IMG/VR virus record: IMGVR_UViG_3300022661_000054
Length of the DNA stretch: 64,000 nt
DNA from: a virus
Taxonomy: Duplodnaviria; Heunggongvirae; Uroviricota; Caudoviricetes
Direction: 5' to 3' (one strand)
Position numbers and translations under genes: made by a program. A model generated the notes under the pieces. That model had not been told where the DNA came from, did not search any database, and worked only from the letters and a program-made list of their open reading frames with translations. Position 1 is the first letter of the stretch; each line of letters begins with the position of its first letter. Of the stretch, positions 35,326 to 54,704 are shown piece by piece.

Positions 35326-35664
35326 TTACCAAATATACTCAATTTTAAGCCATTTATCTTCATTCTCAATAGGACAAAACAGTACTCCGGAACCGCTATC
35401 AGGATTAAACAAACTGTCATCTTGCTTCTCTAAGACGTAGCTACCATTCTCTTGTTTATCGCCTGCTGGCTCATTAACGATACTAAAAGAAACAACTTCG
35501 ATATATTCGAGGTTACAATAGCTGTCCTCTGATTTGACGGCTTCTTTAAGACTCCAAATCATCTCATCTCTTTCTCTGTCTATACTTGCCATTTGCTTCG
35601 AAAGAGCATCAATTGCTTTTACAGTATTAATGACATTTTTAGTGAGCATTTTTATCACCTTCAT
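35326..35664 (-). CDS. Hypothetical protein
   Basis: 112-aa coupled ORF. Confidence 0.6.
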   Translation of the reverse strand: MKVIKMLTKNVINTVKAIDALSKQMASIDRERDEMIWSLKEAVKSEDSYCNLEYIEVVSFSIVNEPAGDKQENGSYVLEKQDDSLFNPDSGSGVLFCPIENEDKWLKIEYIW

Positions 35665-36583
35665 GTAATATTTTTAAAGCGTCGTAAAATTTAATTTCTT
35701 TTAAATATGAAGCAGAAGTGAATTCAGCTTCATATTTATCTATAGTCTTCTGCTTCCAGTCTTTAAAGAAATGCAAAGTCATGTGATAACGAATAAGAGC
35801 AGCTACGGTAAGACTGTCTACGTCTTCTTCTTTTCCGTAGAAAAGAGAGATATAAGCACCGACATTTTCGTGGTTGTAATAATGAGCAAACTCAGAATCA
35901 TTTCCTTTAGAATCTTTGAATGCTTTACAAAAAGGCTTACCACAATCATGAAGCGCGGCAGCAATCTTAGTTTCAAGCTCAATAGCAGGCCCTAAATCTT
36001 TTTCTCTTGACTGTACATACTGAAGAGTTTTTAAACAGTGGTCACCGAGAGTTTCAGCATGCCATTTACTTTCCTGATTAAAATCGAAATGGTCAGTAAC
36101 AAAATGGCTCCAATCGCCATATTTGCTCATAGCTTCTGCATTTGCATAAGCAATTTCAATCATATTCCAACCTTCATTGTACCATGGGATATCAAAGCTC
36201 TTATACATACGTTCAAGTACATGGTAAGGCACCACACGAGATCGCTCCTGATTTCTTTGAACGCATAATTCAAAAGGAGTAGCCATAATAATACATCGCT
36301 TAAAACAATCTATATTAGTTAATTCTTGTAAAAATGCCTTACGACGCTTCCAACTGATATTAGTTGCATCATATACTACGTTCTTTCCGTCAGAAAGGTC
36401 TTCTTTTACGCGCTTGTGCAGGAGTTCAAACACCTGCTTATTAATATTTTGGTTATTTACATCGCCAGACAGTTCTTCTCTAATAGCATCGCTACTATGT
36501 ACGCTATAATTAGGATAATTACGTTCAATAAAAGTACTTTTACCACTTCCAGGTAAACCTACCATCATTACAAAAACAGACAT
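35639..36583 (-). CDS. Polynucleotide kinase (AAA_33 P-loop) fused to HD phosphohydrolase; RNA end-healing enzyme
   Basis: GLPGSGKST, SSDAIR, VVYDATN, RNQER; C-terminal H..TLGDH...ALHDCGKP...HENVGA...LHEGD. Confidence 0.85.
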   Translation of the reverse strand: MSVFVMMVGLPGSGKSTFIERNYPNYSVHSSDAIREELSGDVNNQNINKQVFELLHKRVKEDLSDGKNVVYDATNISWKRRKAFLQELTNIDCFKRCIIMATPFELCVQRNQERSRVVPYHVLERMYKSFDIPWYNEGWNMIEIAYANAEAMSKYGDWSHFVTDHFDFNQESKWHAETLGDHCLKTLQYVQSREKDLGPAIELETKIAAALHDCGKPFCKAFKDSKGNDSEFAHYYNHENVGAYISLFYGKEEDVDSLTVAALIRYHMTLHFFKDWKQKTIDKYEAEFTSASYLKEIKFYDALKILHEGDKNAH

Positions 36584-36593
36584 ATGTACCTCC

Positions 36594-36860
36594 TTAATTA
36601 TATTTTTCAGCTCGTTTCTTTCTTACTTCTTCATTAAATTGCTGTACAGTTTTATTATTAAAAGTTAACGTTGGGATAATCACTTTTTGCTGATATGTTT
36701 TATTAAACCAGCCAAAGTCCCAACCAAAATCAACTAAATCTTTATAAGGCTCGCGACCACTCCATAAGCAATCTAAACAATATGGAGCCATTTGATTTGT
36801 TAAAGTATTTTTATGTTCTTCAACATCACTACCAGCTCTACCACATACACAACAATTCAT
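36594..36860 (-). CDS. Small zinc-binding protein
   Basis: CCVC...CLDC. Confidence 0.6.
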   Translation of the reverse strand: MNCCVCGRAGSDVEEHKNTLTNQMAPYCLDCLWSGREPYKDLVDFGWDFGWFNKTYQQKVIIPTLTFNNKTVQQFNEEVRKKRAEKYN

Positions 36861-36861
36861 A

Positions 36862-37656
36862 TTAATTCTCCGTCCAGTATTTAGTTAGGATATCTACTAA
36901 AATACAGTCCATTCTGTTACAAGTATCTTCAGCTACCTTACGTTCATTAGTATCTATATAAGCCTGCTTTCTAGCTTTAGCATAGTCAACAGCTTCTTTT
37001 GCAATAGCTTTTGCTTGATCTAAATCATATCTATAATTAGCTTTTACACTAATTAAGTATTCACGGTCGTATGGAATTAGACAATCTTTGTATAATACAC
37101 CATCAATGTATCTGTCAAGAAATTCTCTACATCTAATAATATGGTGAAGCTGTTTATTATCATATCCATACTTATCAATCTTGTCTTTTAACGTAGGATA
37201 AGGATGACACAAAGCAGCGTTCTTCTCTAAGATCATACCGACGATACAATTTACAGCAGCATAATTATCAATGTGTGCGATATCCTCATTAATTCTAAGC
37301 ATCTCGAGCCAAAAATAAAAGTAGTCGCGCGGTACGTAAAAGAACTCAGTAAATAAAATCTCAAGGTAGTTTACGTTCTGCTTCTTAAAACATTGCCACA
37401 TAAGTCTAATATCTTTTAAATCAATGTGTGAATTGTCTTCTAATATAAGAGTAGTACTTGTAGGCTGCTTATTTAAAATAAGGTCTTCAGCGGAAGGCAG
37501 AACAATGCACTTTGTATCGATATCACTGCCTTCATAATCCAACTGATAATTCTGTGAGCCTTGCAAAAATATGCCAAAAACTTCATATCCTTGATTTTTC
37601 ACATAATTATAATCGTGCTTTAGTCTTTCACAAATCTTAAGTTCTCTTTCAGTCAT
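36862..37656 (-). CDS. Pol-beta-superfamily nucleotidyltransferase (RlaP/YcgL-like)
   Basis: LQGSQNYQLDYEGSDIDTK (GS...DxD), KQNVNYLEILF, KQLHHIIR. Confidence 0.75.
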   Translation of the reverse strand: MTERELKICERLKHDYNYVKNQGYEVFGIFLQGSQNYQLDYEGSDIDTKCIVLPSAEDLILNKQPTSTTLILEDNSHIDLKDIRLMWQCFKKQNVNYLEILFTEFFYVPRDYFYFWLEMLRINEDIAHIDNYAAVNCIVGMILEKNAALCHPYPTLKDKIDKYGYDNKQLHHIIRCREFLDRYIDGVLYKDCLIPYDREYLISVKANYRYDLDQAKAIAKEAVDYAKARKQAYIDTNERKVAEDTCNRMDCILVDILTKYWTEN

Positions 37657-37813
37657 TTAAAAACCTCCAAATATGCTTAGGACGGCGCTCATAAGAGCCC
37701 TTTCCCTTTTTGTTCTCAAGCTTGAAGCCACGTTTTTTGAAATACATGTAGAGTTCAAGTTCTTCAGGTGATTTTTTAAACATTCTTCTATCAATAGATG
37801 CTTCCTTTTTCAT
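37649..37813 (-). CDS. ArfA-like alternative ribosome-rescue factor (54 aa)
   Basis: Manually translated: MKKEASIDRRMFKKSPEELELYMYFKKRGFKLENKKGKGSYERRPKHIWRFLND; KKGKGSY.R..KH motif; SD GGAGGA; below the ORF-track cutoff. Confidence 0.65.
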   Translation of the reverse strand: MKKEASIDRRMFKKSPEELELYMYFKKRGFKLENKKGKGSYERRPKHIWRFLND

Positions 37814-37903
37814 AATAAAGTCCTCCAATTTTTATATCAATAATATATAATACAACAAAATAAAAAGAAAGTTGGCATAATTAACCAACTTTCTTTAAAA
37901 CCA

Positions 37904-38134
37904 TTATTCTTTTACTTCAACAAGCTCAAAAGTAACAAGCTCCAATGGGCCTTCGTATTTAGTTCTAAAATAACGCATAGAACCATTACCAGATAATTTA
38001 TCATTATACTCATCAATTGCTTTCTGGCAATTTCCACGCTTTTCCCAAAACTTATGTCCAGGGTTGGTAATATCTCTTACGAGCTTACCTGTCGAAGCAT
38101 CACGCACTGCATATAAATAATTTTTATTATTCAT
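37904..38134 (-). CDS. Hypothetical protein
   Basis: MNNKNYLYAVRD..., coupled to the upstream gene. Confidence 0.6.
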   Translation of the reverse strand: MNNKNYLYAVRDASTGKLVRDITNPGHKFWEKRGNCQKAIDEYNDKLSGNGSMRYFRTKYEGPLELVTFELVEVKE

Positions 38135-38402
38135 TACAAACACTATATCCTTTAACTTCATGGAAACCACATTTAATAAACTTATTAATATCATGAATGT
38201 AAATAGGTTTATCATAGCTCTCAATCGGGCACGCATACAATTCGTCATAAGACATTAAATTAAGTCCAGTAATACCATAACCATATGCACGCTCTCGCAT
38301 AGCAGTCGTATCCTCACAAATAAGAATACCATCTTCAGCTTTTACTCGCTCAATCAAAGTTTTAGTTTTACCAATACCTTTACCACCACTAAGAATAAAC
38401 AT
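38127..38402 (-). CDS. Small P-loop-containing protein
   Basis: GGKGIGKT at the N-terminus. Confidence 0.55.
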   Translation of the reverse strand: MFILSGGKGIGKTKTLIERVKAEDGILICEDTTAMRERAYGYGITGLNLMSYDELYACPIESYDKPIYIHDINKFIKCGFHEVKGYSVCNE

Positions 38403-38443
38403 TTTTAAATACCTTCCTTATATTTAATTTATTTTATTATGTA

Positions 38444-38884
38444 TTATTGATTTTCTATTTTGCCGCCTCTTGACATGTTTGCTACTTTTTCATTATGAAT
38501 ATCTAAGGCTTCCTTGAGAGTACACTCTTCAAAAGGCAACACCTTATAAAAGCTAGGCTGTTCTCCTATCTCTTTCAGCCATTCTTTAACAATAGGTGCG
38601 ATTCGTTCATTTAAAAGATCTAACTGTTCTCTTTTAGCGCTGTCAAGCCAACCGTCAGAAGCTTCACCGACTTCATCCCAAGCATCTTCACAAAGTCTTT
38701 CGACAATATCTTGAGCAAAGTCATAATTGACCTCATAGTTTTCAATAAGACCAAGAGCGAAAGTATCTTCTAACTTATATTCTTCCCATTGAGCTTCCTC
38801 TACACACTCTCGTATCGAGTCACACGGTCCACCCCGCCAAATTTCATCGTCACTTCTTCGCGACCAAGCATATTTGTTTGCCAT
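38444..38884 (-). CDS. Hypothetical protein
   Basis: 146-aa ORF with SD GAGG and an upstream promoter motif. Confidence 0.7.
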   Translation of the reverse strand: MANKYAWSRRSDDEIWRGGPCDSIRECVEEAQWEEYKLEDTFALGLIENYEVNYDFAQDIVERLCEDAWDEVGEASDGWLDSAKREQLDLLNERIAPIVKEWLKEIGEQPSFYKVLPFEECTLKEALDIHNEKVANMSRGGKIENQ

Positions 38885-38957
38885 ACTAACACCTCAATAA
38901 GTTATTCTATAATATAATACACTATAAAGAATGAAAAAATAAAGCTGGTTATAAAAA

Positions 38958-39290
38958 TTAACCAGCTTTTTCTACTAAATAATCGTATAAAGCTTCAGGA
39001 GTAGTGAGGTCTTTTTCATATTTTACTCCATCAGCTTCACACCAGATCTTCTTATCAACATTTTCCCAAAGCCACCAACTAATTACTGAACCATATTTTC
39101 TATTAGGCAAATCATTCATGCCGAACTCAAGAACTTTTATTAGCTGGTCTAGCCACTCCTGCCCTACATTACAAATAAAAAACGAATCACAAACTTCAGT
39201 TACAGCTTTTTCAAACTTTGAACGGCGTTTATAGCCGTCTTTAATCTTATTTAAAGTCTCGATAAAAACTTCTTTACTAAAAGCAACCAT
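38958..39290 (-). CDS. Hypothetical protein
   Basis: ISWWLWE...TPEALYDYL, a common phage family pattern. Confidence 0.65.
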   Translation of the reverse strand: MVAFSKEVFIETLNKIKDGYKRRSKFEKAVTEVCDSFFICNVGQEWLDQLIKVLEFGMNDLPNRKYGSVISWWLWENVDKKIWCEADGVKYEKDLTTPEALYDYLVEKAG

Positions 39291-39291
39291 G

Positions 39292-40083
39292 TTAATTATC
39301 GCCTCCAATAAAATTATCATCTAAAACTAGTACGTTAACTTCACCAGTATGTGCAGTACAGCGATCAATGCCGATGATTCCTTGAGATTCGTTAAAGTAC
39401 GGATCCCACTTGGCATCATCACCAAACTCTGATAGCTCACCTTGACTATCGCATAAATGACCTAAAGAACAATGCCAATGTCCGAATACGATTGTCTTAC
39501 CGGTTTTGTTCATACCGTCTTGTGCTTTCCAGAAAGGATTACCCCACATAGCTTCTTCCCACTCTACCTCGGAAGCATTACGCCAGTTCTCATTGTATTC
39601 GTAGTATTTTCCAACCTGGTGCCAAGGCTTACTAGCACCTTTATCATAATGAGTAATAGTAGGAATCCAACTATGAACAAAAATATACTTTTCAGTTTCA
39701 AAATAGTTTACAAGTAGGTCGCGATACGCTGCCGTTTTATTCAAAGCTGTATCACAGCACTTAGCAAAATCCGCCGGAAGAGGACTTCCACCGAGGTCTT
39801 GAACAGTTCTTACAGTGCCATTAGACTTATCGTGGCTATATGGAAAACATCTTGCGCAAAGATCGTCAAAAAGTAGGTCATGATTACCTTTTACTAGAAT
39901 CTTTCGCTCAAGCGACATTAAATAGTGCAACAATTCAATACTATTAGGACCCCTATCAAAGCAATCGCCGCACGAAATCAGCCAGTGTTCTTCGTTATTA
40001 GGGTCAAAACCTGCTCTGTCTAAAGCATTTTTAAGTGGTTCTAAGAAACTGTGAATATCAGAAACAACAAAAAGCTTAGGCAT
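39292..40083 (-). CDS. Calcineurin-like metallophosphoesterase
   Basis: SDIHS, GDCFDRG, GNHD, FVHS, FGHWH, IDRC. Confidence 0.9.
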   Translation of the reverse strand: MPKLFVVSDIHSFLEPLKNALDRAGFDPNNEEHWLISCGDCFDRGPNSIELLHYLMSLERKILVKGNHDLLFDDLCARCFPYSHDKSNGTVRTVQDLGGSPLPADFAKCCDTALNKTAAYRDLLVNYFETEKYIFVHSWIPTITHYDKGASKPWHQVGKYYEYNENWRNASEVEWEEAMWGNPFWKAQDGMNKTGKTIVFGHWHCSLGHLCDSQGELSEFGDDAKWDPYFNESQGIIGIDRCTAHTGEVNVLVLDDNFIGGDN

Positions 40084-40938
40084 TTATTTATCTCCTTCTG
40101 AGTAAACCCACCGTTCAATGTAGTATCTATCTTGAGTAAAAATGGGAATTTCTTTATCGATTACCCATTCACTTCTCATACAGCGAGTCTCTTCTTTTGT
40201 TTTAAAATCAATACAAATATCTTCTTTTTCTACACGATTACAGCAGACACCACGTTTAAACTCAGTAGGCATATCATTAAAATTGATACCTCTCTGAGTC
40301 ATTAACATATCTTGAATGTCATTGCAAGACTTACCGTGTAGTTCCTTATGAGAGAAGTTGCACTGACCAAGCATCTGAATTGCGTTGCGAGTAGCATCCT
40401 GCTGACGCCAGATGAAGCAGTTGGTAACTTCTTCTTTAGGAATGTTAAAACAGCGAGAATCAAACATTGCACCATTGTCAATAGCCTTCTTTAATGTATT
40501 AGCATATTTCTCAACATCTTCTTCCCAATAATGGTTTACCCATACATCAGACTGTAAATAATTATCAATTAATTCTCTAAGATACTTATTGAAAACCATT
40601 GTTGCCATGCTTGCTGACACGCTGCACATTTTCTGCACATTATAACCAAACCAAGCATCGGTATCAAGAGTGTCATAGTCTGTGAGAAGAAGAGTGATTT
40701 CGTCTGACTGTGTATAACCAAGCTTACAACCCTGGATATTCTCACAGAGATACTTCATAGTCGCATTCATAGTATTGTGGAAAATCTCGTCATAAGGCCT
40801 CTTAAGACCTTTAGTGAAGGTGTGGAAAGCTTTGCCGTCAAGTCTAATGATTACAGGAACTCGTCTAGGTAGATAATGTTTACTCCTATTTTCATAGAAT
40901 TCTTTCATTCTATCACCAAGTGCATCTTTAGTACTCAT
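40084..40938 (-). CDS. Thg1-like 3'-5' nucleotidyltransferase (tRNA-His guanylyltransferase family)
   Basis: IIRLDGKAFHTFTK...KPYD-like, GYTQSDEITL, FDSRCF, WRQQDATRN. Confidence 0.9.
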   Translation of the reverse strand: MSTKDALGDRMKEFYENRSKHYLPRRVPVIIRLDGKAFHTFTKGLKRPYDEIFHNTMNATMKYLCENIQGCKLGYTQSDEITLLLTDYDTLDTDAWFGYNVQKMCSVSASMATMVFNKYLRELIDNYLQSDVWVNHYWEEDVEKYANTLKKAIDNGAMFDSRCFNIPKEEVTNCFIWRQQDATRNAIQMLGQCNFSHKELHGKSCNDIQDMLMTQRGINFNDMPTEFKRGVCCNRVEKEDICIDFKTKEETRCMRSEWVIDKEIPIFTQDRYYIERWVYSEGDK

Positions 40939-41479
40939 ATTTTATACCTCCTGCTAGTATGCTTAATACAGTCTTAACTGCATAGTCATAACCTTCATTA
41001 TCGCCGTTAATTTCAAAATAATCAATACCAAGACCTTTATATAAATCTTTAATGCGGACACTTATACGATCACTTTCTTCTTCTGTCTGATTTCGGCCTT
41101 TAGGGTTGTAAGGTTTAACTCTGTTAATAAAGAAATTAATATTTTCATATGTATTATAAACATCCATGACTAACCTTGGATAAGACTCAGTTATTGCAGG
41201 ATTAGTATTATAAATAATACTAAGAGGAAGCGGGCTATCAGTCACAATCACATCGACATCATCTCGGCATCTACGTAATCTATAAGACTGTTTACCAAAC
41301 ACATATTCTTGACAACCTAGAGCCATAATATTATGCTCCCAGGTCTTATCTTTAGCAAATTCTGTTACAAGTTCTGCATTAACACCAGCTTTTTTAAGCT
41401 CTGCAAAAATAGTTGCTGCACCAGTGCTTTTTCCAGCACCTGGAGCTCCTGTTAAATTAACAACTAATGGTTTTTTCAT
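40928..41479 (-). CDS. P-loop kinase/ATPase (AAA_28/NadR-like)
   Basis: GAPGAGKST, VTEFAKD, VTDSPL, GRNQTEEES. Confidence 0.75.
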   Translation of the reverse strand: MKKPLVVNLTGAPGAGKSTGAATIFAELKKAGVNAELVTEFAKDKTWEHNIMALGCQEYVFGKQSYRLRRCRDDVDVIVTDSPLPLSIIYNTNPAITESYPRLVMDVYNTYENINFFINRVKPYNPKGRNQTEEESDRISVRIKDLYKGLGIDYFEINGDNEGYDYAVKTVLSILAGGIKYEY

Positions 41480-41644
41480 TTTAAATTCTCCCATACATAA
41501 TCGATAAAGATATTCCAATTCATCATTACTTGATCATAAACTTTTACTATAATATCATACAATAAAAAAAAGAAAGTTACTTATATCTAAGTAACTTTCT
41601 TAAAAAAAATCCTTGCAAAATAAACAAAGGAGGTACACCTTATA

Positions 41645-42290
41645 CATTCAAAGATAAATATAATACATTCCTAGGCCTTCGCCTTACCACTTGTTATATT
41701 CAAGTACATTCGGTCACATAGATGACAAGTCTGAGCTTCGGGGAGCGACCCCTAACTTCTTGCCACGAAATCTGGGTACTTGGTTAACGGCCAAGCCCTG
41801 GACTACATAAACTATGACAGGATTGATTACCTGCACCCCTCACCGTCTATTCAGAAAAAATTAATATCAGTATTCCTAATTATATACTAGCATTAATTCT
41901 TTGTTAATTGTCTTCGGCTACTAGGAGGTTACTTGAATCTCTTATACCCACATTTCTATGGTTCACGACAAATGAGATTATTGGCATTTCCAAGGTGTAA
42001 TACAGTCACCAACTAAACCCTAACTTGGATTCGGCTCAGCTATTAACCAAGCTTTCTATTACTCTCACGAGACTCTTCCTACCATTACTTGCTATAACAT
42101 CAGCACATACAACATATGTTTCGGGTCCTACCCTTAACTCATATACTCGCATATATAAGTAGCGCGGTTTCCGAGGTATCCCTCTTATGTTACCATCACA
42201 CATTGTTCAGCTTTCGCTTAGTTGCATTCTCAGCACAAGAAGCGTGTCTTGTGTTTAGCACTGAGTTAGTAATTATATTTATCTTTCAAG
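41645..42290 (-). ncRNA. Large structured ncRNA, ROOL-like (GOLLD not excluded)
   Basis: ~640-nt ORF-free region closed by a perfect 15-bp helix (41650-41664 with 42272-42286); own promoter at ~42310; many hairpins; 3' motifs GGGGUCGCUCCCC and CUCAGACUUGUC recalled from large phage ncRNAs; next to the tRNA array. Confidence 0.6.
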
Positions 42291-42673: not shown

Positions 42674-43345
42674 TTAATCTTTCAAGTATCTCCATATAAA
42701 GCCATAAGCAGTTTTTCGTTTACCTTTGCAAACCTCTAGAATGTGAGCTCTAATTGCGCCGCCTTTAGCATCAGAAATACCACTATCTCGAATCCACTGC
42801 TCAGCTTCATAAGAATTAGTAACACTATGAATTAAATTATTTTTTAAATCATAAATATTTATTGGTTTACTATAAAGCTCTTTTACTAAATCCGGGCTAG
42901 ACTTAACTTGAATATTAGCAGCTTTAGCAATATCGATAATTGTGTCTTTTGTGCACTTAAAAACTTCTGCAGCATCCTTAACACAATTATTATTACGTAA
43001 ATACTGAATAATCGCGCGTCTATCATAAAGCATCTTGCTTCCGCCACCCAAAGTAGCGTTATAACCAGGACCAAGCGGATCTTTACAAAAAGTATGAAAT
43101 TTCGTAATCCAATAAATTTCTCGGTCATTTAAAAGCTCTGGATCATCAGCTAGTTCTTCAACAACTTCTATAGTAAAAGCTGAATAACCATACTTTAACA
43201 TAGCTTTGTACAGAGGTCTTTTACTGTGACCAGTTCTAGCGCTGTCTTTTAAATGCTCTGCAAACCTTTTTTCTAATGAATAAAGTGTTTGACCTATGTA
43301 AGCCTTGCCATTAAGATTATTTGTAATTTTATAAATATAAGCCAT
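42674..43345 (-). CDS. Free-standing GIY-YIG homing endonuclease (Seg-like, NUMOD1-type C-terminus)
   Basis: MAYIYKITN...YIGQT...RFAEH...LNDREIYWI...GYNATLGG; C-terminal ILEVCKGKRKTAYGFIWRY. Confidence 0.9.
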   Translation of the reverse strand: MAYIYKITNNLNGKAYIGQTLYSLEKRFAEHLKDSARTGHSKRPLYKAMLKYGYSAFTIEVVEELADDPELLNDREIYWITKFHTFCKDPLGPGYNATLGGGSKMLYDRRAIIQYLRNNNCVKDAAEVFKCTKDTIIDIAKAANIQVKSSPDLVKELYSKPINIYDLKNNLIHSVTNSYEAEQWIRDSGISDAKGGAIRAHILEVCKGKRKTAYGFIWRYLKD

Positions 43346-43463
43346 AAGAATCACCTAGTTAGTAACTTAGTAGCAGCTGCATTACTAACTAGGTTACTTA
43401 TTTATTGGACAATTCAGTTTAATTAACAACTCACACCACGTGAAGGTATGTCCATTGTGAGTC

Positions 43464-43745: not shown

Positions 43746-43890
43746 TGGCGACTCCGATCGGGATCGAACCGACGACCTCCTGCGTGTGGAGCCTTATACT
43801 AGTCTTGCACTAGCATCTCTTTATAAGAGTGTTTTACTATTAAACTAATAAAGCACAGGCAGGCGTTCTAACCATCTGAACTACGGAGCC
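43746..43890 (-). tRNA. tRNA-Asp(GUC) interrupted in the anticodon by a nested tRNA-like element
   Basis: GGCTCCG/CGGAGTC G CCA; anticodon stem CCTGC/GCAGG; loop CTGT|C AC after removing 43787-43854. Confidence 0.8.
43787..43854 (-). ncRNA. Nested tRNA-like element (68 nt, CCA end)
   Basis: GCTTTAT/ATAAGGC T CCA acceptor; D-like GTTT..AAAC; stunted CTCTT-ATA-AAGAG; T arm GCTAG TGCAAGA CTAGT. Confidence 0.75.
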
Positions 43891-44427: not shown

Positions 44428-44987
44428 ATATATTTTATAATGTAGTTTATTCTCTTACCCTTTTATTTCACTACTTGCCTGCTTATCCACAGTAATATAA
44501 ATTACCTGATACGAGTTTCTCAAGGGTACAGGCTATAACTGATTTTATCGTTGTCTGCCAACTATCTTATTCCTTAATAAGCAAATTTGGGAGCATTTAT
44601 CGTTTGCCCAAACATTTTAGTCTTTACACCAAAATTCTATGTTTCAGATTACCACATTGTCAGCACAATGACCATTAAGGATTTTGTTAAGGGATATGTT
44701 CCCTTACTCGATGGACCAGGGTCTTTCAACCAGCCCTATCAAATAGGTGAACTCGCACAACAGTTCACAGTAGATATCACCACATAGACATCTTTACCTC
44801 ACATAGTTAACACTATGATTTTTGATAAAGCGGTAACCAGCCACACCCATGCTTCCTTCACTACTTAACTTCTGGTTTCATAGCTCGCATGTGCCCTTAC
44901 TATTTGATATTTGTGGGGCTTTATACCCACTCGTTTCTTAAAACGACAAGCACATAGTTATTCAACGGTAACTCTACGAAACCCACC

Positions 44988-47148: not shown

Positions 47149-47246
47149 TGGACACGACAGCAGGACTTGAACCTACTTATCTTCAAGAAATCAATCTTGG
47201 TCTTTTTCCTGGGATTCGGATGCTTTACCACATAAGCTATATCGTG
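47149..47246 (-). ncRNA. tRNA-like element with aberrant anticodon/variable region
   Basis: CACGATA/TGTCGTG T CCA, good D arm GCTT..AAGC, T arm GTAGG TTCAAGT CCTGC; no assignable anticodon. Confidence 0.6.
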
Positions 47247-49256: not shown

Positions 49257-49637
49257 TATTTACTCCCTTCGATACATAAAGATATTAGAATTTTATTGAC
49301 TGTACTAATATTATACAGTACAAAACATCTTTATGTCGCAGCAGAGCATCAAGAATTTATTTAAGAATTTATTTTATAAAGAAAAAGATTTATGAGTAAC
49401 TCGTTCTGCAGTTGAGTCGACCCCTTGACTGACATAAATCAAATCAGGTTAGGCTTTTGTTTATGTAGTATCACATCTACTCTGGTCGGTCCAGATTAAG
49501 GGAAACCTTTATCTCTTTACCCTTCATAGAAACCAGTCATACGTTTAAGATTTGTGTGACTAACACCGTACGCTCCGATTACGTTAAGCTTCGATCCATT
49601 TGTGTGATTTTTAAATATCAGGAAGGATGTCCTTATG

Positions 49638-49710
49638 TTACGGTTGTAGGATTTGAACCTATACTTCCGACCAAAAGGCCGGCGTTCTATCCAATTAAAC
49701 TATCTCCGCA
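49638..49710 (-). pseudogene. Degenerate tRNA (undetermined)
   Basis: D arm GTT..AAC, T arm ATAGG TTCAAAT CCTAC, broken acceptor, anticodon hairpin CCGGCC-TTTT-GGTCGG. Confidence 0.45.
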
Positions 49711-50132: not shown

Positions 50133-50344
50133 ATAAAATTCACCGTGGACTACTTACATTGTTCACCAGATTACCAGTGTAGCATCCTTTAACAATACGT
50201 TTATCTTTTATCAATAAAGCACTACCAGTATCAATACAGGGGCACGGCTACTCTACTCCCTGGTGACGATTAGCTGATTCTCACGTCCAACGATATTCCC
50301 GCCCCAGTCCACCCAGTGGGAACTTATTAAAATACTATATAGCA

Positions 50345-50416
50345 CTACGCTTACGGACTCGAACCGTGTCTCCCAACAGATTAGGTCAGGTGTTTTACCA
50401 GTTAAACTATTACGCA
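50345..50416 (-). pseudogene. Degenerate tRNA (undetermined)
   Basis: D arm GTTT..AAAC and TTCGAGT T loop; acceptor and anticodon stems mispaired. Confidence 0.4.
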
Positions 50417-50614
50417 GATATTATCTAGTTCGTGCTATCCAAGACTTTTTACCACATTTAGGACATTTTGTTCTTCTATAGTCTTTCATTCGGAAAAACA
50501 CAAATTCATGAAAAGGAGCTTTCAAGATCCATTTCCAATAATTAGATTCCCATTCGTGATTACATTCTGGGCACTGTAACTTTACCTTCATAAAGTACCT
50601 CTAAATAAATAATT

Positions 50615-50941: not shown

Positions 50942-51093
50942 TGGTGACGCGTACGGGAATCGAACCCGTGATACCGCCGTTGGTGCTAGATGTCAGACTC
51001 GAACTGACACATAACCTCTATCTCTAGTGGCCTGCCTTACCTTTTGGCTAATCTAACGAAAGGGCGGTGTCTTAACCGCTTGACCAACGCGCC
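50942..51093 (-). tRNA. tRNA-Glu(UUC) interrupted after position 36 by a nested tRNA-like element
   Basis: GGCGCGT/ACGCGTC A CCA; stem CCGCC/GGCGG; loop CTTTC|AC after removing 50981-51057. Confidence 0.8.
50981..51057 (-). ncRNA. Nested tRNA-like element (77 nt, CCA end)
   Basis: GTTAGAT/ATCTAGC A CCA; D arm GCC-AAAAGGTAA-GGC; T arm GTCAG TTCGAGT CTGAC; degenerate anticodon arm. Confidence 0.8.
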
Positions 51094-51331: not shown

Positions 51332-51414
51332 ATAAACTAGTTTATGCACTTAAAACTAGCAAAACGGTCGTTTCTATTTAACCCATTCAACAGAAACTGA
51401 AAAACATAAAGGTC

Positions 51415-51553
51415 TGGTGCGGGATATCGGACTTGAACCGATACGGTATCACTACCGAGGGATTTTTGGTACTTGATGTAGGTACTGCCCCTACTAGATA
51501 GACACTATGTCATCAAGCAAGTCCCTTGCGTCTGCCTATTCCGCCAATCCCGC
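51415..51553 (-). tRNA. tRNA-Leu(UAA) interrupted between positions 34/35 by a nested mini-tRNA
   Basis: GCGGGAT/ATCCCGC A CCA, Leu-type D loop and long variable arm; stem AGGGA/TCCCT; loop CTT|AAAA after removing 51467-51518. Confidence 0.8.
51467..51518 (-). ncRNA. Nested mini-tRNA (52 nt, CCA end)
   Basis: GCTTGAT/ATCAAGT A CCA; hairpin GACA-TAG-TGTC; T-like arm GTAGG GGCAGTA CCTAC. Confidence 0.75.
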
Positions 51554-52706: not shown

Positions 52707-54704
52707 TTAATTATTAACAAAAGCTACTAATTTTTCTAATTCATAACTTCTGATAATGGTCTGCTTTACAGGGTCGATATCATCAGAGTCTTCAGAAATG
52801 ACTGGAGCATAAGTATCATCAAATACAACGTTTGCATCCATAGGATTATCCGCAAGCTCGCCACGACACTCGGCAATCATACCAATATTAACGTCAAGAT
52901 AATTAGCCTGTAAGTATTTTTCGATAGTCTTAAAACCTTCAGGTCTAATTACTCTATCATCACTGTCAAGAATCTGATTAAGAATGACTACTTCTCGATT
53001 CTGAATGTCAATAGCAAAAGCTACGCAAGCACGAGAATCACCATAAACCTTAAACTGCATCTCAATGTTCTTAGGATCCCAAGCTTTAGTATTAAGATTT
53101 TCTTTATTCTGGTAACCAGCATAAATCTCACCACTGTTAAGTTCACTGCAGTAACCATGGAAAGTCTGAACTACATACTTATAACCTTTTTTGGCAAGAG
53201 AGTCGAGGTTAATATCAAAGTACTCTGCACCATTAGGACCAGTAATATCACCGGAGAACAGGATATCATTTCCAAAAGATTTTGCACCATAATTGAACCA
53301 GCCCATAGTAGACAAATTATCATCTTTATCTACAACGATAAGAGAAGAATCAATATCAAAAGCTTTCTTCCAATGTACAAAAGTTCTAATATTATTTCCA
53401 GTACAAGGTATACGGCTTCCAATAGGAAGTACATCAATACCCTTACCGCTAGCAGAAGTATTAGTAGGCATACCTAACTTATAGAAATTATCAGCTACAT
53501 AAATCTTACCAAGAGAAGGCAAAGACTTGTAATATTCTTTAATCTTATCAAGACAAACAGAAGCAAGGAACTTACGTGTATTTTCGTTAAGTCTAGACTT
53601 TCGCCATTTAGCTTCATAGTCAGTTTCCTTGTGAGTTTTTACTTTATTATTATGGAAGTAAGTAAAGGTTCTTGCTTCAGTATCATCTGCTGAAAGAGTT
53701 GCAAGAAGCTGATAAAGAACTACAGGATTAGATGCAGGAATCATATTAAGAATTTCAACAGCTTCCTGAGGATTTGCTCTTGAAAGAAGCATCTTAATGC
53801 GACGTTCTAACATAGAACCATTAGAAGCATAAATATCAGCCGCAGCAACAATATCACCATCGGAAAGCATTTTAAGAGCCGCTCTATCAGGGGACTGCAC
53901 ATTAGTTTCTTTGGGTAATTTTAGGTTGCCAAGAGAAACGATTTTATTAAAATACTTTGCCTGTTTCTTAGACATAGGACAATGTTTTACATAAGGAATA
54001 TAAGAAGCAATTTCACTGAAATGCATCTGTAATTCTTTCCAAGCATAAGGATTCTTTTTGCAATTCTTGAATTGTGCTTTATCTCCAAATCTTTGAACAG
54101 AAAGCTTTACAATATCTTTTTTATCTAAGAATCTAGCAAATCTTTTATCTGTAGGAAGGAGCGCAAAAACATTGTCTTTACACTTAATTTCCTCTGACCC
54201 ATCATAAAAACCATTAGTAAACAAAGTAAGAAATTCAGCTAATTCATCACACGAAAACGGACGAGTGTAAGCACAATAAGCATCCGTAATATCGTATAGA
54301 GTTTTACGAGCTTCTTCATTATTTATAATATAGAAGGTTCTAAGTTTAAGCTCATCACCTACAACATATTCAGGAAGATCTTTCTTAAAAATTTCAATTC
54401 TACCAAGGTCCGAGCCATATGCAAAATAAGAAACAATCTGCTCAATCAAAAGCTCTTCACAAGTAAAATATTTAGTATCCTGAGGATTCTCATAAAAAGA
54501 CTTAGGAACATTCAAATGAAATTCCTCGTCAATCTGATTAACCATAGTCTTAGTAAGAAAACTAGGCTTATCTACAATAATACCGAAATTAGCTAACAAA
54601 TATGCGTTTAAATAAGCTGAATTATTTGTAGCCAAATCACTATCATCAATAACTAAATAATGACGAGTTCTTAAAATAGACTTCAAAGTTTCGTTAATTT
54701 GCAT
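52707..54704 (-). CDS. Helical N-terminal domain + C-terminal TerD-like domain; candidate Ro60/TROVE-related RNA-binding protein
   Basis: C-terminal VHWKKAFDIDSS, FSGDIT..GAEYFDINL TerD-like motifs; long helical N-terminus with PKSFYENP; flanked by five Y-like RNAs. Confidence 0.55.
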   Translation of the reverse strand: MQINETLKSILRTRHYLVIDDSDLATNNSAYLNAYLLANFGIIVDKPSFLTKTMVNQIDEEFHLNVPKSFYENPQDTKYFTCEELLIEQIVSYFAYGSDLGRIEIFKKDLPEYVVGDELKLRTFYIINNEEARKTLYDITDAYCAYTRPFSCDELAEFLTLFTNGFYDGSEEIKCKDNVFALLPTDKRFARFLDKKDIVKLSVQRFGDKAQFKNCKKNPYAWKELQMHFSEIASYIPYVKHCPMSKKQAKYFNKIVSLGNLKLPKETNVQSPDRAALKMLSDGDIVAAADIYASNGSMLERRIKMLLSRANPQEAVEILNMIPASNPVVLYQLLATLSADDTEARTFTYFHNNKVKTHKETDYEAKWRKSRLNENTRKFLASVCLDKIKEYYKSLPSLGKIYVADNFYKLGMPTNTSASGKGIDVLPIGSRIPCTGNNIRTFVHWKKAFDIDSSLIVVDKDDNLSTMGWFNYGAKSFGNDILFSGDITGPNGAEYFDINLDSLAKKGYKYVVQTFHGYCSELNSGEIYAGYQNKENLNTKAWDPKNIEMQFKVYGDSRACVAFAIDIQNREVVILNQILDSDDRVIRPEGFKTIEKYLQANYLDVNIGMIAECRGELADNPMDANVVFDDTYAPVISEDSDDIDPVKQTIIRSYELEKLVAFVNN

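Follow-up and report, generated by a model that had tools for sequence, protein, structure and literature searches.

A probably spliced, tRNA-shaped insert in the anticodon loop of a phage tRNA-Glu(UUC) gene

The window, i.e. the whole stretch of 64,000 nucleotides that was analyzed, comes from an uncultured phage of about 220 kb with a GC content of 33%. It contains tail and lysis genes, genes for a topoisomerase II and a pyruvate-formate-lyase-like enzyme, a ROOL RNA and a tRNA array of 9 kb on the minus strand. This array also includes free-standing tRNA-like RNAs, which have no anticodon loop and are conserved in relatives (e.g. at 47149-47246). Within the array an initial annotation had noticed a tRNA-Glu(UUC) gene that is split after position 36 by a second tRNA. 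This arrangement raises two questions: what is the insert, and is the tRNA gene around it a functional one from whose RNA the insert is removed, or a gene that the insert has destroyed?

The tRNA-Glu gene and its 77-nt insert

The minus strand between 51093 and 50942 consists of an intact tRNA-Glu(UUC) body around a 77-nt insert; the letters match the quotation in the initial annotation exactly, and the boundaries proposed there (51057 and 50981) are correct. The Rfam tRNA covariance model aligns end to end (model positions 1-71) with 149 nt of this strand (50945-51093). The score is 49.5 bits (E = 1.4e-7 when the entire window is searched) at a gathering score of 29, and the alignment has a single insertion of about 80 nt, which is located in the anticodon loop. 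The gene begins with the acceptor strand GGCGCGU and the D arm. The anticodon stem CCGCC/GGCGG then encloses CUUUC, the insert and AC; downstream of the insert AC and GGCGG are followed by a T arm with the loop UUCGAUU, the 3' strand of the acceptor stem and ACCA. Deletion of 50981-51057 results in a 75-nt tRNA with the 7-nt loop CUUUCAC, which contains U33 and the anticodon UUC. The Rfam score and this loop bear out the view that an outer tRNA-Glu is split after position 36. In the relative L001 the syntenic tRNA-Glu has no intron, and the joined exons share 79% identity with it; with nine other intron-less Glu tRNAs they share 52-69%. When the 152-nt RNA is folded, both cloverleaf tops form (z about -2 to -2.5).

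The insert is also tRNA-like when it is scored alone (50984-51057; 41.2 bits, E = 3e-8 with the Rfam tRNA model). It has an acceptor stem of 7 bp (GUUAGAU/AUCUAGC) followed by U8-A9, a D stem of 3 bp with a GG-containing loop, and a perfect T arm (GUCAG-UUCGAGU-CUGAC), after which come A73 and CCA. Its sole non-canonical part is the anticodon arm. This arm is replaced by an extended central stem that contains an A-A mismatch and is closed by a GAGA tetraloop, and the insert therefore cannot decode. The initial description of a near-complete, CCA-ended tRNA with an aberrant anticodon arm is hence confirmed by the score and by the GAGA-capped stem.

It had further been suggested that a standard scanner may report the inner element and miss the outer gene. 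This is half right, as the locus is indeed handled badly: ARAGORN with default settings calls no gene at the Glu locus, neither outer nor inner, while the Rfam model reports the outer gene. With introns allowed ARAGORN detects the Glu gene but mis-types it as SeC(tca). In neither of these two modes did ARAGORN find another Glu, Asp or Leu(UAA) tRNA gene within the window. An artefact of the assembly was considered and rejected, since the design of the insert recurs on many contigs and in relatives.

Table 1. Parts of the Glu gene, further features of the window and tRNA genes with a nested tRNA-like insert in related phages.
Feature	Position in window	Strand	Basis or remark
tRNA-Glu(UUC) 5' exon: acceptor 5' strand, D arm, anticodon stem 5' strand, nt 32-36 (CUUUC)	51058..51093	-	
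tRNA-shaped intron, 77 nt, between C36 and A37	50981..51057	-	
tRNA-Glu(UUC) 3' exon: nt 37-38 (AC), anticodon stem 3' strand, variable loop, T arm, acceptor 3' strand, A73, encoded CCA	50942..50980	-	
tRNA-Asp(GUC), split after U35 by 68-nt intron (43787-43854) ending U-CCA	43746..43890	-	Rfam and body/G73
tRNA-Leu(UAA), split after U34 by 52-nt acceptor + T-arm mini-tRNA (51467-51518) ending A-CCA	51415..51553	-	ARAGORN with introns
RNA end-healing/repair gene cluster, just downstream of array	35639..41518	-	candidate helpers only
P-loop kinase + HD	35639-36583	-	
RlaP-like Pol-beta nucleotidyltransferase	36862-37656	-	
Metallophosphoesterase	39292-40083	-	
Thg1-like 3'-5' polymerase	40084-40938	-	
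AAA_28 kinase	40928-41518	-	
L001 nested genes: Leu, Asn, Asp			
L002 nested genes: Gln, CAU, Gly			
L003 nested gene: CAU			
L005 nested genes: Asn, Gly			
L006 nested gene: CAU			
L007 nested gene: Asn			
L019 nested gene: CAU			
L032 / L035 nested gene: Leu			
L033 / L034 nested gene: Leu			

Similar inserts in other tRNA genes

Related phages were collected with the help of a 665-aa protein, whose gene lies 1.6 kb upstream of tRNA-Glu. More than 600 homologues of this marker, 68-82% identical to it, are encoded on metagenomic contigs between 200 and 230 kb long, and the phage of the window itself recurs on 22 contigs. The sample comprised the arrays of seven relatives, 19 loci from a metagenome collection and 11 loci from IMG/VR; the contig of P0003, the closest of the additional relatives, stops before the tRNA array and gave no array data. 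A close relative of this phage was not found in the phage isolate collection, and an exact-pattern scan of the viral contig collection found neither the Glu 3' exon nor the 5' junction.

Including the three cases in the window (Table 1) and about 14 in the relatives, the survey yielded at least 17 distinct nested genes, which belong to seven tRNA types (Glu, two Asp, four Leu, three Asn, Gln, four CAU and two Gly). For the Asp gene of the window the Rfam model reports a 142-nt tRNA at 43749-43890; its identity follows from the body and G73, and its intron spans GCUUUAU to AUAAGGC-U-CCA. ARAGORN mis-typed several of these genes: Glu was called as SeC, Asp and Asn as His, CAU as Trp and Gln as Glu. 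The identities were reassigned from features of the loop and the body. On reassignment the intron-bearing "Glu" of L002, for example, became Gln(UUG). A cut behind the discriminator base, by which the CCA of the intron would become a Trp anticodon, was considered and rejected, since the bodies clearly belong to Glu, Asp, Leu and other tRNAs. Six other intron calls by ARAGORN were discarded, as they either lacked the nested acceptor/CC signature or overlapped coding sequence (L013 5609-5749, L003 11856-12089, L001 20223-20307, L005 4639-4765, L004 19614-19721 and L034 16029-16191).

All cases follow the same rule. The intron opens directly with a 7-bp acceptor stem, whose base 1 is also base 1 of the intron. 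Immediately next to the 3' strand of this stem is a T arm with 5 bp and a loop of 7 nt, and the intron ends with a discriminator base followed by CC and A (G in two cases from L001). C74 and C75 are invariant across the cases, with A or G at position 76. Excision always leaves an exact 7-nt loop, and its anticodon agrees with the identity that the body indicates, for example UUG with U1-A72/G73 in Gln, GUC with G73 in Asp and UAA with the long variable arm in Leu. The insertion point differs among the cases and is found after position 34, 35 or 36. Thus the boundaries are set by the fold of the insert and not by the host loop. Of the first 15 cases, 12 start their intron with G and three with C; the exon base in front of it is a pyrimidine in 15/15 and U in 12/15. 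The Glu locus, with a C at this place, departs from the preferred U.

Intron sizes lie between 52 and 133 nt, and the central arm, a free-form hairpin, varies greatly in length. Only the acceptor stem, the T arm and the N-CC tail are universal. Even the D arm can be lost: the window and L001 have 52-nt Leu introns without it, while it is kept in the 67- and 102-nt orthologues from more distant relatives. Because at least 17 inserts in seven tRNA types share no more than this core, they seem to be members of a dedicated, sporadically distributed intron family, which is probably mobile. The earlier idea of a once-functional tRNA that decayed in place is less likely than such a family and finds no support here, and neither does the Gln-like D arm that had been ascribed to it; the part of the same proposal in which the inner element is a processing substrate remains plausible. 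In all of the intron-bearing tRNAs base 34 is one that is normally hypermodified; this could equally reflect the overall composition of the array.

The Glu intron is absent in every examined relative that has a tRNA-Glu(UUC), namely L001, L003-L007, L011, L017, L019 and L024. The local gene order in L001, Leu(nested)-Ile-Glu-Gln, is the same as in the window, and its Glu gene is uninterrupted. The comparison with orthologous loci, which had been recommended as a check, thus finds both flanks joined in one tRNA-Glu, and this favors the outer gene as a true unit. Among the sampled sequences the closest relative of the Glu intron is the intron in the CAU tRNA of L006. The two are 64% identical and their acceptor stems are nearly alike, with one compensated pair. 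This likeness suggests gain, loss or movement of introns between tRNA genes, but with 64% identity it does not demonstrate that a transfer happened recently.

Free-standing genes for GIY-YIG and HNH homing endonucleases are present in these arrays. One GIY-YIG gene lies near the Asp gene of the window, but L001 has the same Asp intron and no such gene; intron and endonuclease are therefore not coupled. The endonuclease genes and the sporadic distribution, including the isolated occurrence of the Glu intron, speak for the reading that a selfish tRNA-like element has inactivated these tRNA genes. The outer genes would then be pseudogenes whose halves are never rejoined, and the phage would use the tRNAs of the host. 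This reading can be judged from the evolution of the inserts and exons.

Evolution of inserts and exons

The fold of the introns was examined for covariation in an alignment of eight introns (63-84 nt), considering the acceptor, D and T helices. In this alignment 99.2% of the helix cells are paired, and 13/16 helix pairs exhibit compensatory double changes. None of 500 shuffled controls reached the observed pairing values, and pairing falls to 34-50% when the partners are slid by 1-3 columns. A covariance model built from the same eight introns recovered both Gly(UCC) cases, which had been missed by ARAGORN and Rfam.

The exons were compared between the window and L001, in which introns split the Leu and Asp genes at identical positions. 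The outer Asp exons have 11 differences, which include three compensated stem pairs and no broken one; the outer Leu exons have 18 differences with eight compensated pairs and again none broken. The Asp intron is 91% and its exons are 86% conserved, and the respective values for Leu are 83% and 79%; most of the flanking spacers can be aligned over only 35-53% of their length. The Leu(UAA) intron between U34 and A35 is also kept, with unchanged flanking loop bases, in relatives in which the 665-aa marker is about 50% identical. Finally, an intact cloverleaf and an exact 7-nt loop are present in 17/17 outer genes.

Compensated exons, conservation of the introns and persistence of the Leu intron, together with the fact that no Glu, Asp or Leu(UAA) gene besides the split ones was found in the window, are hard to square with dead genes. 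The 17 intact cloverleafs also speak against inactivation by a selfish element, a reading that we consider improbable. Instead the pattern of exon and intron evolution implies that the insert is removed from the RNA.

A related possibility is that the product is an unspliced or half-processed chimera. Here the outer body would stabilize a functional inner tRNA-like RNA as a scaffold, or would be a handle for its processing, and this inner RNA could serve for instance as a decoy for tRNA-targeting defences or as a partner of the nearby RNA-handling proteins; the Glu anticodon would not be used. The free-standing tRNA-like RNAs in the array provide a parallel for such a product, and the introns are as well conserved as the exons. 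A scaffold, however, needs no anticodon that is rebuilt to match the identity of the body, yet this is what 17/17 cases have; moreover RNase P would be expected to cut such an RNA. The chimera hence seems quite improbable. Taken as a whole the comparative data make it probable that the Glu locus contains a genuine, spliced tRNA-shaped intron within a functional tRNA-Glu gene.

Candidate routes of removal and comparison with known systems

If the insert is spliced, one may first think of a conventional intron, either a self-splicing group I intron or a bulge-helix-bulge (BHB) intron of the archaeal/eukaryal type. Group I introns are known from bacterial and phage tRNA genes; like the present inserts they are sporadic and located in the anticodon loop, and the Leu(UAA) case shares with them the position between U34 and A35. 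But their boundaries are defined by P1/P10 pairings and they have a conserved ribozyme core (P3-P9). The inserts described here (52-133 nt) have no core and their boundaries are given by a tRNA fold; 77 nt, or 52 nt in the case of Leu, is far too short for a core, and there was no match to any Rfam intron or ribozyme family even at E values up to 10. BHB introns are removed by protein enzymes, with EndA/Sen as the nuclease and RtcB or Trl1 as the ligase, while the tRNA body holds the exons; this resembles the cut-and-ligate scheme proposed below. They differ in that they have a BHB motif, in which a 4-bp helix lies between two 3-nt bulges, and a fixed site at 37/38, whereas the present genes have no such motif, a variable site and an intron which is itself tRNA-shaped. 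With splice sites at 0 and 4 nt from a single 7-bp helix the geometry is also wrong. Unlike in BHB systems, no EndA homologue was found in the related phages: the PF01974/tRNA_int_endo domain is absent from five related phage records, while archaeal controls score. The conventional reading is effectively refuted; its probability is very small.

This leads to the question of which enzymes could remove the insert. To our knowledge all characterized tRNA introns of bacteria are ribozymes, and we know of no bacterial or phage tRNA that is spliced by protein enzymes. An acceptor/T helix with a T loop and an N-CC tail is the minimal substrate of RNase P and of the enzymes that process 3' ends, and in bacteria the RNase P RNA pairs through its P15 loop with C74 and C75. 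The Glu intron has the features of an RNase P substrate, i.e. a coaxial acceptor and T stem of 12 bp, a T loop, a single-stranded 5' flank and a 3' N-CC tail. The invariance of C74 and C75, with A or G at position 76, fits pairing with P15 better than aminoacylation, which needs A76. In the sequences of the family three features fit RNase P: the invariant CC, the preference for G at base 1 and the preceding pyrimidine.

We therefore favor the following route. The Glu gene would be transcribed as part of the minus-strand tRNA array, and host RNase P would read the acceptor/T-arm minihelix of the intron with its N-CC tail as a pre-tRNA. It would cut 5' of intron base 1, between 51058 and 51057, and would leave a 3'-OH on the 5' exon. 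A second endonucleolytic cut would occur right after CCA, between 50981 and 50980 and four nt past the acceptor helix. The enzyme for this cut would measure from the same minihelix; it could be RNase Z/BN in a mode of cutting after CCA, or another nuclease. The exons would be held together by pairing in the outer acceptor, D and anticodon stems, and an ATP-dependent RNA ligase of the phage would seal the nick in the anticodon loop. The kinase and phosphatase of the phage could first heal the ends if the chemistry of the cut is wrong. The intron would be set free as a small, CCA-ended tRNA-like RNA. In this scheme splicing itself, the enzymes, the chemistry of the ends and the order of the steps are what we infer from the sequences. 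For the combination of RNase P, a cut after CCA and a phage ligase our confidence is about even.

Several of these steps have precedents. In the maturation of mascRNA from MALAT1 and of the stable RNAs in the tRNA cluster of T4 an embedded tRNA-like fold directs the end-processing enzymes, and RNase P makes the 3' end of the upstream RNA. In these cases the flanks are not rejoined, whereas rejoining is needed here for a functional tRNA. It counts against the proposed second cut that some bacterial RNase Z enzymes treat CCA as an anti-determinant; RNase Z of Thermotoga maritima provides a precedent for cutting after an encoded CCA, and E. coli RNase BN acts likewise on CCA-containing precursors. 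A nicked anticodon loop with paired exons is a natural substrate of ATP-dependent RNA ligases. A further point against this step is that the related phages that were searched encode no metallo-beta-lactamase protein of the RNase Z type.

The proposed route calls for a phage ligase. In the 64-kb window scans of about 40 ORFs with Pfam and PHROG found no RNA ligase, and a homology search with the RlaP of the window returned orthologues only and no ligase-adjacent paralogue. The ligase content was surveyed in IMG/VR relatives that are more distant than L001-L027. All four near-complete ones (4/4) have matches to PF09414 and/or to an Rnl1-type RNA ligase; in G002 the PF09414 match is below the Pfam cut-off and the Rnl1-type ligase above it. 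RtcB is encoded in one of the four. In G001, which has a nested Leu gene, a 209-aa, catalytic-domain-only PF09414 ligase adjoins RlaP. A ligase that is 87% identical to this protein is recorded on a contig of 208,397 bp, and the contig of L002, which has three nested tRNAs, is 208,397 bp long. The presence of a ligase in the phage of the window would accordingly rest on its relatives. RlaP has been described as 'RNA ligase-associating', and its distribution mirrors that of RNA ligases in jumbo phages (PMC7824862).

The genes for a kinase, a phosphoesterase, RlaP and a Thg1-like polymerase form a cassette that recurs in L002 (for the window see Table 1). The kinase and phosphatase next to the array would be unneeded for ends of the RNase P/Z type, and a nuclease that leaves cyclic-phosphate/5'-OH ends may be at work. 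In a variant of the splicing scheme a dedicated phage nuclease would therefore leave a 2',3'-cyclic phosphate and a 5'-OH; the kinase-HD protein and the metallophosphoesterase would heal these ends and the ligase would seal them, as do Pnkp and Rnl1 of T4. The position of the cassette directly downstream of the array and its recurrence in L002 agree with this variant, as does the fact that no known enzyme has been assigned to the cut after CCA; the arrays also include several uncharacterized small ORFs. Against it stands that no candidate gene for the nuclease was found. Such repair cassettes are also common in jumbo phages without nested tRNAs, where they counter host anticodon nucleases (PMC7824862). 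Furthermore the universal core of the introns is exactly what the tRNA-end enzymes of the host read, which would otherwise be an odd coincidence. On balance we regard a dedicated nuclease as rather unlikely.

The route via RNase P and a ligase has a counterpart in the repair systems of T4 (Pnkp/Rnl1) and of jumbo phages (RlaP and ligase; PMC7824862), in which a phage ligase also seals a break in the anticodon loop. The likeness extends to the gene content, since RlaP, a kinase and a phosphatase adjoin the array here and the ligase is found in relatives. But while those systems mend damage by host nucleases, the same chemistry would here act constitutively in the proposed removal of introns.

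Introns in phage tRNA genes have been noticed before. Devoto et al. 2019 (PMC6784885) reported that tRNAs of the Lak megaphages contain 'enigmatic' introns, and that the intron of a tRNA-Thr(UGU) 'itself may encode a tRNA'; this intron occurs in only part of the genomes, and where it occurs its sequence is highly conserved. Both sets are phage tRNA genes with inserts in the anticodon region. The Lak phages, however, are Prevotella phages of about 540 kb with an alternative code, whereas the present clade has genomes of about 220 kb with 33% GC, and the Lak paper (PMC6784885) contains no family analysis, boundary rule, covariation or mechanism. Full-text searches of the literature found no paper in which tRNA-shaped introns are described mechanistically; the only introns reported in a Jug-phage paper from 2026 are of group I. 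The Glu locus therefore opens no new class, since the class was already glimpsed in the Lak phages in 2019; it contributes a well-documented example and material for comparison. To the earlier picture the analysis adds the boundary rule, the variable insertion site, the conservation of CC but not of A, and the covariation of the inner fold. It also adds the compensated exons of intron-bearing genes, the deep persistence of the Leu intron and the co-occurrence with ligases.

Tentatively, these genes may represent a third way of splicing tRNAs, in addition to self-splicing and the endonuclease/BHB pathway. An intron that mimics a tRNA would specify its own excision by the universal end-processing enzymes, with RNase P at the 5' site and an endonuclease that measures from CCA at the 3' site, and a minimal phage ligase of 209 aa would rejoin the anticodon loop. 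If this is true, maturation of these tRNAs depends on phage enzymes, and the freed CCA-ended mini-tRNA may serve again, for example as a decoy for tRNA-targeting defences. If processing of the RNase P type followed by ligation occurs, the machinery for the maturation of tRNA ends can act as a splicing apparatus, and the RNA 'repair' ligases of phages gain a housekeeping role. It would also explain why standard annotation under-counts phage tRNAs: in the window the sole genes for Glu, Asp and Leu(UAA) are all missed or mis-typed by it.

Structured RNAs in and around the tRNA arrays

The features discussed here are listed in the table below; L001, L002, L007, L017 and L030 are loci with tRNA arrays from related metagenomic phages. 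The pistol ribozyme in L007 begins only 4 nt beyond the 3' end of a tRNA-Leu, and this position suggests that tRNA 3' ends are made by a ribozyme in this phage clade.

A full-length ROOL RNA, a type of RNA with no known function, closes the array in the window, and it is placed likewise relative to the array in L001, L002 and L007. ROOL is constantly paired with arrays that bear nested tRNAs, i.e., tRNA genes split in the anticodon loop by a tRNA-shaped intron. The arrays of the window and of L002 contain further structured RNAs (see table). The window and L001 share 96% identity over the 83-nt spacer on the 3' side of the nested tRNA-Leu, far more than over the adjacent spacers; this spacer could represent a small conserved RNA or a regulatory element.

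Features of the window and of related loci (coordinates in nt; handles as in the text)
Feature	Location	Strand	Remarks
665-aa protein gene	window 52707-54704	minus	without Pfam family
83-nt spacer	window 51332-51414	minus	directly downstream of nested tRNA-Leu; compared with L001 13935-14100
tRNA-Ile(AAU)	window 50344-50417	minus	ARAGORN; odd anticodon loop
tRNA with 2-nt "anticodon" (tt)	window 49637-49710	minus	ARAGORN; odd anticodon loop
tRNA-like RNA, 98 nt	window 47149-47246	minus	free-standing
Its counterparts	L002 18275-18372; L017 12864-12982		
DUF3800-XI RNA	window 44691-44737		within array
GIY-YIG homing endonuclease gene	window 42674-43354	minus	between tRNA-Thr and tRNA-Ala
ROOL RNA	window 41653-42289	minus	286 bits; downstream end of array
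tmRNA, phage-encoded	L002 14348-14783		83.8 bits; within array
Skipping-rope RNA	L002 16573-16687		within array
tRNA-Leu	L007 2686-2765		
Pistol ribozyme	L007 2769-2839		65 bits
tRNA-Leu(UAA)	L007 3199-3533		248-nt insert after U34
tRNA-Lys(UUU)	L030 5110-5380		183-nt insert
RNA ligase, 209 aa	L042 1483-2112 (G001 184.2 kb)	minus	adjoins RlaP

Other inserts and a tRNA-like RNA

The inserts in the L007 tRNA-Leu(UAA) and the L030 tRNA-Lys(UUU) are not tRNA-shaped; both may be small group I-like introns. An Rfam search of L007 gave no hit at or above the gathering score for the Leu insert. The free-standing tRNA-like RNA of the window, whose acceptor, D and T arms are good, ends in U-CCA and has a long insert in place of the anticodon region. 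It is kept in L002 and L017, where the L017 copy has grown to 119 nt.

Protein genes associated with the arrays

The GIY-YIG gene of the window is missing at the syntenic site in L001; further GIY-YIG and HNH genes are dispersed across the arrays of the relatives. The gene for the 665-aa protein, our marker for finding relatives, invariably heads the tRNA array in phages of this clade, and the protein is highly conserved (>600 homologues, 68-82% identity). The initial annotation suspected a Ro60-like role for it, with Y-RNA-like elements nearby. The RNA ligase of L042, a stretch of the near-complete relative G001, consists of the PF09414 catalytic domain alone. It has >6900 homologues, the best 120 of which are 85-98% identical to the query; judged by these 120, it is far more conserved than the marker protein (~50%).
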